A DNA stretch of 64,000 nt, taken from assembly GCF_044647545.1 (NCBI RefSeq), contig NZ_CP172818.1. One strand, 5' to 3'. Shown one piece after another: positions 30,972-30,998 of the stretch. The notes under the pieces were generated by a model, which was not told the origin of the DNA, searched no databases, and saw only the letters and a list, made by a program, of their open reading frames with translations. Within the stretch, counting starts at the first letter, position 1, and each line of letters opens with the position of its first letter. The position numbers and the translations under genes were made by a program. This DNA comes from Escherichia coli (GTDB lineage: Bacteria; Pseudomonadota; Gammaproteobacteria; Enterobacterales; Enterobacteriaceae).

Positions 30972-30998
30972 GGGGGCCTGCATATGGCCCCCTTTTTC
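30972..30998 (+). terminator. rpsB-tsf intergenic hairpin with U-tract (attenuator/partial terminator)
   Basis: gggggcc-tgcatat-ggccccc followed by tttttcactttta. Confidence 0.7.

Follow-up and report, generated by a model that had tools for sequence, protein, structure and literature searches.

A probable leaky intrinsic terminator (attenuator) inside the rpsB-tsf operon of Escherichia coli

The G+C-rich hairpin and the adjoining U-run in the spacer between rpsB and tsf are very probably the known intrinsic (Rho-independent), leaky terminator, or "attenuator", that lies inside the rpsB-tsf operon of Escherichia coli. An intercistronic attenuator of E. coli rpsB-tsf was reportedly described by An et al. 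in 1981. The element is already known, and its confirmation adds nothing new for E. coli; a conserved three-helix module, of which the hairpin is a part, and a strain polymorphism upstream of the hairpin are small, modestly useful additions to this known attenuator. In the proposed mechanism, RNA polymerase coming from the rpsB promoter would transcribe rpsB, an 8-bp G+C-rich hairpin would form, and a short, interrupted U-run (UUUUUCAC) would follow, where a fraction of the polymerases would release the RNA at about position 30998 and thus leave a monocistronic rpsB mRNA. The other polymerases would read through to give an rpsB-tsf mRNA, and some of them would go on into pyrH-frr. Because such termination is partial and the promoter a single one, tsf mRNA would be held below rpsB mRNA. 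The ratio of the two mRNAs is documented, and the element presumably determines the S2:EF-Ts protein ratio as well. The attenuator is a standard example of one promoter supplying two components of translation in unequal amounts. Its partial efficiency is probably due to the 7-nt loop and the run of five U, and possibly also to a competing helix.

In the stretch of DNA that was analysed (64,000 nucleotides, hereafter the window), the rpsB-tsf spacer measures 129 nt, with the stop codon of rpsB (30923-30925) on one side and the ATG of tsf (31055) on the other. The 2.5 kb around the site match 5,422 complete E. coli genomes at an identity of at least 99%, with the gene order map (minus strand), rpsB, tsf and pyrH. 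The initial annotation had placed a hairpin with a U-tract inside this spacer, and the sequence at 30972-30997 reads exactly as described there (Table 1). With the closing A30971-T30993 pair, the stem comprises 8 bp, seven of which are G-C, around a loop of 7 nt, and the folding energy of the hairpin is -17.6 kcal/mol. Directly 3' of the stem, the sense strand carries the U-rich tract UUUUUCACUUUU, that is, five U and then an interruption; at the DNA level, T5 spans 30993-30997 and is followed by C30998 and then acttttat. Both hallmarks of an intrinsic terminator, a G+C-rich stem-loop and a U-tract on the sense strand, are therefore present. On the antisense strand of the window, the tail of the hairpin is not T-rich, so the hairpin is expected to act in one direction only.

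Table 1. Positions of the terminator and neighbouring features in the window
Feature	Position	Strand	Basis and remarks
t44/tff leader of the rpsB-tsf operon, 5' UTR	30086-30172	+	Rfam RF00127, 83.5 bits against a gathering threshold of 44; ncRNA tff annotated in K-12
rpsB CDS (ribosomal protein S2), tandem stops TAA TAA	30200-30925	+	ORF and translation; RefSeq annotation of a 99.8% identical record
Stem A	30925-30946	+	AUAAGG (30925-30930) with CCUUAU (30941-30946); overlaps the stop codons; helix 1 of covariance model R1
GCCCUU, hypothetical anti-terminator	30939-30944	+	Can pair with GGGGGC (30972-30977), the terminator 5' arm, enclosing hairpin I
Hairpin I, GACCAGG / UUUGGUU, 9-nt loop	30948-30970	+	RNAalifold; helix 3 of R1
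Full terminator hairpin	30971-30993	+	Stem 30971-30978 / 30986-30993, loop 30979-30985; energy; helix 4 of the covariance model
Terminator hairpin GGGGGCC-TGCATAT-GGCCCCC	30972-30992	+	Sequence; arms 30972-30978 / 30986-30992, loop 30979-30985
U-run T5 and mapped RNA 3' end	30993-30998	+	Coordinate mapping, Term-seq, SMRT-Cappable-seq
Hairpin III	31007-31033	+	RNAalifold; shortly before the Shine-Dalgarno sequence of tsf, GAGGA (31043-31047)
tsf CDS (EF-Ts)	31055-31906	+	ORF and translation; RefSeq annotation of a 99.8% identical record
Terminator after tsf	31914-31941	+	Hairpin of -19.5 kcal/mol, then a T-run; equals the K-12 terminator with centre 191729 and termination site 191745

A scan of both strands of the window for perfect stems with a T-rich tail behind them yielded 25 hairpins, among which the rpsB-tsf terminator ranked fifth; 11 had an energy of -14.5 kcal/mol or lower, compared with 0.3 expected on average from dinucleotide shuffles of the window. 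When the spacer itself was shuffled, a comparable hairpin arose in just 5 of 5000 shuffles. The 80-nt core of the region (30960-31039) was 100% identical and single-copy in 5387 of the 5424 E. coli genomes. The reading of the hairpin as a dispersed intergenic repeat (REP or ERIC/IRU) was also considered, and was rejected because the core occurs once per genome.

Experimental evidence comes from published transcript ends of K-12 MG1655, which is identical to the window across the hairpin and everything downstream of it up to tsf. The hairpin pattern lies at NC_000913.3 190774-190802 in this strain, and K-12 position 190800 corresponds to C30998 of the window. By Term-seq (Adams et al. 2021, supplementary file 1), a 3' end was mapped to 190800 on the plus strand, with a flanking sequence that is the rpsB-tsf hairpin; it is represented by 17,496 average reads in LB at OD 0.4 and 1,964 in LB at OD 2.0, and the same position is present a third time in that file. 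SMRT-Cappable-seq (Yan et al. 2018, PMC6131387, Supplementary Data 1) showed that transcripts from the rpsB start site at 189712 end at 190800. Of the 1340 reads starting at 189712 in M9, 232 stop at 190800 and 906 pass it, and 324 reach the tsf terminator at 191745. The transcripts from this start site thus both stop at the hairpin and continue into tsf, as is expected of a partial terminator, and the in vivo 3' ends on the identical K-12 sequence lie within or just after the U-tract. The initial annotation had found the hairpin consistent with the known partial terminator between rpsB and tsf and would have been refuted by a lack of 3' ends near position 31000; the ends map to window 30998, the last coordinate of the feature, and these ends, together with read-through from the same start, support its interpretation.

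Position 190800 was tagged "novelTTS" in 2018, which means that it was missing from the RegulonDB terminator list (PMC6131387). RefSeq records carry no annotation at the terminator site, and the TERMITe supplements hold no entry for it. In the Rich_TTS sheet of PMC6131387, the row for 189712 to 190800 has the counts 63 / 16 / 852 and a median of 1226 nt for the read-through; in view of this median, the columns "passing through" and "within 50 bp downstream" look swapped in the Rich sheet relative to M9.

Other transcript analyses describe the same behaviour. Two nanopore studies reported step-wise termination of tff-rpsB-tsf. In a Northern-based account (PMC2834685, citing Aseev et al. 2008), a single rpsB promoter is given, monocistronic rpsB transcripts end at the attenuator before tsf, and about one third read through. 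The estimates of termination efficiency disagree, being about two thirds by Northern analysis versus about 20% from the size-selected long reads in M9. All of the experimental data on the terminator derive from K-12; in that strain, a 128-nt repeat that the window lacks lies upstream of the hairpin.

We then considered the same gene pair in other bacteria. A single genome-collection scan with EF-Ts provided 80 loci, 79 of which were scorable, and rpsB lay immediately upstream of tsf in all 79. Under strict criteria, a terminator-like hairpin was found on the sense strand in 26 of the 69 spacers of at least 40 nt, as compared with two on the antisense strand and 0.3 predicted by shuffles; a looser finder, which allowed bulges, gave a candidate hairpin in most rpsB-tsf spacers. 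In line with these counts, a partial read-through terminator between rpsB and tsf in S. aureus yields an rpsB RNA of about 900 nt and a read-through RNA of about 2000 nt (PMC4608709). Gene pair and logic are as in E. coli, but the hairpin sequence is unrelated, and S. aureus has in addition a predicted tsf promoter and control by RNase Y (PMC4608709). Also in agreement, an rpsB:tsf ratio of 2:1 has been described for S. coelicolor, along with an inverted repeat said to be "similar to that found in E. coli". Fu 2013 only cites rpsB-tsf operon papers. The closest counterpart is the E. coli K-12 attenuator, which shares the locus, the hairpin, the U-run and the 80-nt core with the window; the window differs from K-12 in its spacer of 129 instead of 257 nt, the lack of the 128-nt repeat and a loop behind the stop codon that is 5 nt shorter. 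Internal partial terminators are also found in other operons for translation and transcription, two examples being the rplL-rpoB attenuator and, before pnp, the t1 terminator of rpsO. Like the rpsB-tsf element, these are intrinsic terminators between co-transcribed genes that reduce expression of the distal gene relative to the ribosomal protein gene, but they differ from it in locus and sequence. The rpsO-pnp system further differs in its RNase III processing and second promoter (PMC2834685).

Within the Gammaproteobacteria, the terminator is the last helix of a conserved module in the rpsB 3' UTR that extends from Enterobacterales to Shewanella, Aeromonas and Pasteurellaceae. When the spacers of distant Gammaproteobacteria were folded, three parts were seen: (U)AAUAAGG paired with CCUUAUU(A), a (U)AACCA...UGGUU(A) hairpin, and (C)AGGGGCC...GGCCCCU(G) with a short U-run behind it. 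Because MAFFT misaligned the terminator in these distant spacers, a covariance model (R1) was used instead, which was built from nine Enterobacterales spacers with the three-helix structure. R1 matched the spacers of Shewanella (38 bits), Aeromonas (34), Superficieibacter (34), Rodentibacter (26.6) and a gammaproteobacterial MAG (25.4). In an alignment of 15 sequences, 92.5% of the cells pair and five pairs have changed on both sides, four of them in the terminator and one in the stop-codon stem; none of 500 shuffles reached the observed covariation score. Since the alignment was fitted to R1, these statistics lean towards structure, and the signal that the aligned sequences carry is mostly conservation, not covariation.

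In the terminator, the four pairs changed on both sides across Gammaproteobacteria are compensatory at the base of the stem, and within Enterobacterales the stems are kept while the loops vary (TGCATAT, TTTTTAT, TGTCAAT, TCTTAGC, TGTTAT). Stem A pairs in 97.8% of the cells over the 15 sequences and includes one G-C to A-U double change; taken alone, it has little stability in the window (-3.4 kcal/mol). In place of the short apical loop that the window has, most relatives have a GCUC-N4-GAGC mini-hairpin and K-12 has the 128-nt repeat. Hairpin I pairs in 89.5% of the cells, and all of its changes are one-sided. Short or interrupted U-runs recur throughout (UUUUUC, UUUG, UUUUA, UGUUUC), which, together with the sequence conservation of the module, suggests selection for leakiness and possibly for an alternative fold. 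A scan of metagenomes with the 14-mer GCCCTTATTAACCA for more examples of the module was poorly designed: three of the 120 stretches retrieved were rpsB-tsf loci, and the others were chance matches.

The region between the rpsB stop codons and hairpin I is polymorphic among E. coli strains. The K-12 spacer measures 257 nt and contains an insert of about 128 nt directly after TAATAAGGC, behind the rpsB stop codons and inside the loop that caps the conserved stop-codon stem (window 30926-30942; 1301-1440 in the K-12 locus L001). The insert is a dispersed palindromic repeat, which is found at a median of 10 places per genome and folds as a long hairpin; we take it to resemble ERIC/IRU. About 4,090 genomes have the insert at the rpsB-tsf locus and about 1,330 do not, so that some 75% of E. 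coli, including K-12, carry it and the window belongs to the repeat-free class (about 25% of genomes). At 30931-30936, the window spacer reads GGCGGTACGAG, versus GGCACGCTCGTACGAG in all repeat-free E. coli of the collection. This net loss of 5 nt destroys the GCTC-GTAC-GAGC mini-hairpin. The shorter junction has no exact match in 5424 complete E. coli genomes, and it could be either a real variant or an assembly error. The presence or absence of the repeat amounts to a natural experiment on whether upstream structure alters termination efficiency and the S2:EF-Ts balance.

An invariant sequence of the module, GCCCUUAUU, can pair with either its Stem A partner in the stop-codon region or the 5' arm of the terminator, and ribosomes finishing rpsB might thereby tune or gate read-through into tsf, a scheme that we consider unlikely. 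By this scheme, a ribosome at the end of rpsB would free GCCCUU, which would then hold back the folding of the terminator and favour read-through, whereas rpsB mRNA that is not translated, for instance under S2 autorepression, would terminate more. If true, the end of a full-length gene would be the point at which EF-Ts transcription is coupled to S2 translation. Predicted folds agree with part of the scheme. For a transcript cut at the terminator loop, before the 3' arm exists, the minimum-energy fold is GCCCUU paired with GGGGGC (-13.6 kcal/mol, or -16.9 kcal/mol with upstream sequence), and the terminator is favoured once the 3' arm has been made (-22.3 kcal/mol over the same stretch); the same order of folds is predicted for most relatives bearing the module. 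Moreover, (A/U)GCCC persists in taxa that have no mini-hairpin to account for its G and C, Stem A shows its one compensatory change, and the predicted direction matches the lowering of bicistronic mRNA and EF-Ts by S2 repression (PMC10931766). That review, however, ascribes the effect on bicistronic mRNA to lost transcription-translation coupling.

Other observations are neutral or speak against such a switch. The alternative helix can pair in 95% of the cells of the 15 sequences, which is in keeping with the scheme, but not one of its pairs has changed on both sides, and the comparative data are therefore silent on it. When the folds were computed with a ribosome block that covered 13 nt, counted from the stop codon's first base (the assumed reach of a terminating ribosome), the same anti-terminator was obtained with or without the block in most species. 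Stem A is weak in the window, and its 5' arm in Rodentibacter lies about 20 nt past the stop codon, beyond the assumed reach of the ribosome; in Aeromonas the arm begins 4-5 nt past the stop, within the 13-nt reach, and provides no argument against the switch. The majority of E. coli strains also tolerate the 128-nt repeat between the two arms of Stem A. The arrangement is reminiscent of attenuators of the trp-leader type, in that three mutually exclusive pairings (1:2, 2:3 and 3:4) can be drawn and the anti-terminator is weaker than the terminator. Unlike those attenuators, rpsB-tsf has neither a leader peptide nor regulatory codons, the supposed sensor is the end of a full-length gene, and the alternative helix is without covariation. 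In a more modest role suggested by the folding, the alternative helix could simply slow the folding of the terminator and so make it leaky.

For the leaky terminator itself, a mapped 3' end may mark either the point of termination or the point at which an exonuclease, trimming the RNA, met a stable hairpin, and the mapping alone does not tell the two apart. It is conceivable that the transcript is cut downstream and trimmed in the 3'-to-5' direction until the hairpin stops the exonuclease, so that the hairpin would be an mRNA stabiliser and not a terminator, although we regard this as very improbable. What Term-seq and long reads record is where RNAs end and not where they are released; Yersinia and one metagenome locus (L182) retain the hairpin with a U-run of just UUUG; and rpsO and other ribosomal-protein mRNAs need 3' hairpins for their stability (PMC2834685). 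Against trimming, the end lies 5-6 nt past the stem, within or just beyond the U-run, as intrinsic termination predicts, and conservation of the T-rich tail is confined to the sense strand. SMRT-Cappable-seq reads with a primary 5' end still stop at 190800, and the term used in the literature is attenuator (PMC2834685). The 3' end probably reflects true, factor-independent termination by RNA polymerase.

The model sequence of the Shigella RNA CssrA (RF02798) corresponds to the rpsB-tsf spacer, where it takes in hairpin I and the terminator, preceded by the right half of the repeat. A stem-A-like helix, hairpin I and the terminator hairpin make up the 3' two thirds of the model, and these align to 30930-30992; the 5' part comes from the repeat and is missing in the window, and membership in the family was rejected with a score of 59 bits against a gathering threshold of 93. 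That the hairpin is chiefly the terminator of CssrA, or of an sRNA derived from the rpsB 3' UTR, and that its effect on tsf is secondary, seems to us slightly less probable still than trimming. The Rfam match (30883-30992) does end exactly at the hairpin, an RNA of about 110 nt was seen by Northern analysis in S. flexneri (the CssrA source paper), SMRT-Cappable-seq places a start site within the upstream repeat (K-12 190705), and conservation of the module goes well past the demands of a plain terminator. On the other hand, the score falls below the gathering threshold, and the 5' third of the CssrA model is the right half of a dispersed repeat that the window does not have. The source paper reports no target or function, and its table puts cssrA between map and rpsB, which is inconsistent with the Rfam model sequence.

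Supplementary Data 2 of the SMRT-Cappable-seq study lists, without read counts, "novel" start sites of tsf-containing transcripts at K-12 190440, 190705 and 190794; the first is inside rpsB, the second inside the upstream repeat, and the third (window 30992) is the last base of the terminator stem. The least likely reading, that of a complete operon-end terminator with tsf expressed from its own promoter in the spacer, could draw on these minor start sites and on S. aureus, which has a predicted tsf promoter besides read-through (PMC4608709), but hundreds of reads from 189712 extend to the tsf terminator, the Northern-based account gives a single rpsB promoter (PMC2834685), and no sigma-70-like site was found in 29800-32300, the last point being weak evidence because the same simple scan misses the real rpsB promoter too.

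Several neighbouring features complete the picture of the leaky terminator in its operon. S2 autoregulation acts via the rpsB-tsf 5' UTR (review PMC10931766). A Term-seq 3' end is also present at K-12 189839, inside tff and 35 nt before the rpsB start codon, and some transcripts therefore apparently end in the leader. At the other end of the gene pair, the hairpin after tsf is stronger than that between rpsB and tsf (-19.5 versus -17.6 kcal/mol); the tsf terminator is itself leaky, with read-through into pyrH and frr in two long-read studies. On the minus strand, an ORF of 535 aa (window 30194-31801) runs antisense over rpsB, the whole spacer and most of tsf, and is most likely a shadow ORF opposite a highly biased coding sequence.

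RNAalifold also predicted a 4-bp long-range pairing between CCUU (30941-30944, within the conserved GCCCUUAU) and GAGG (31043-31046) of the tsf Shine-Dalgarno sequence; both sides are invariant and give no comparative signal for or against it. Hairpin III, with the arms AUCUGUGCGGUU...GCCGGGCAGAU, holds most of the double-sided (compensatory) changes in the Enterobacterales spacer alignment, and might have an effect on tsf translation or on the stability of the read-through RNA.
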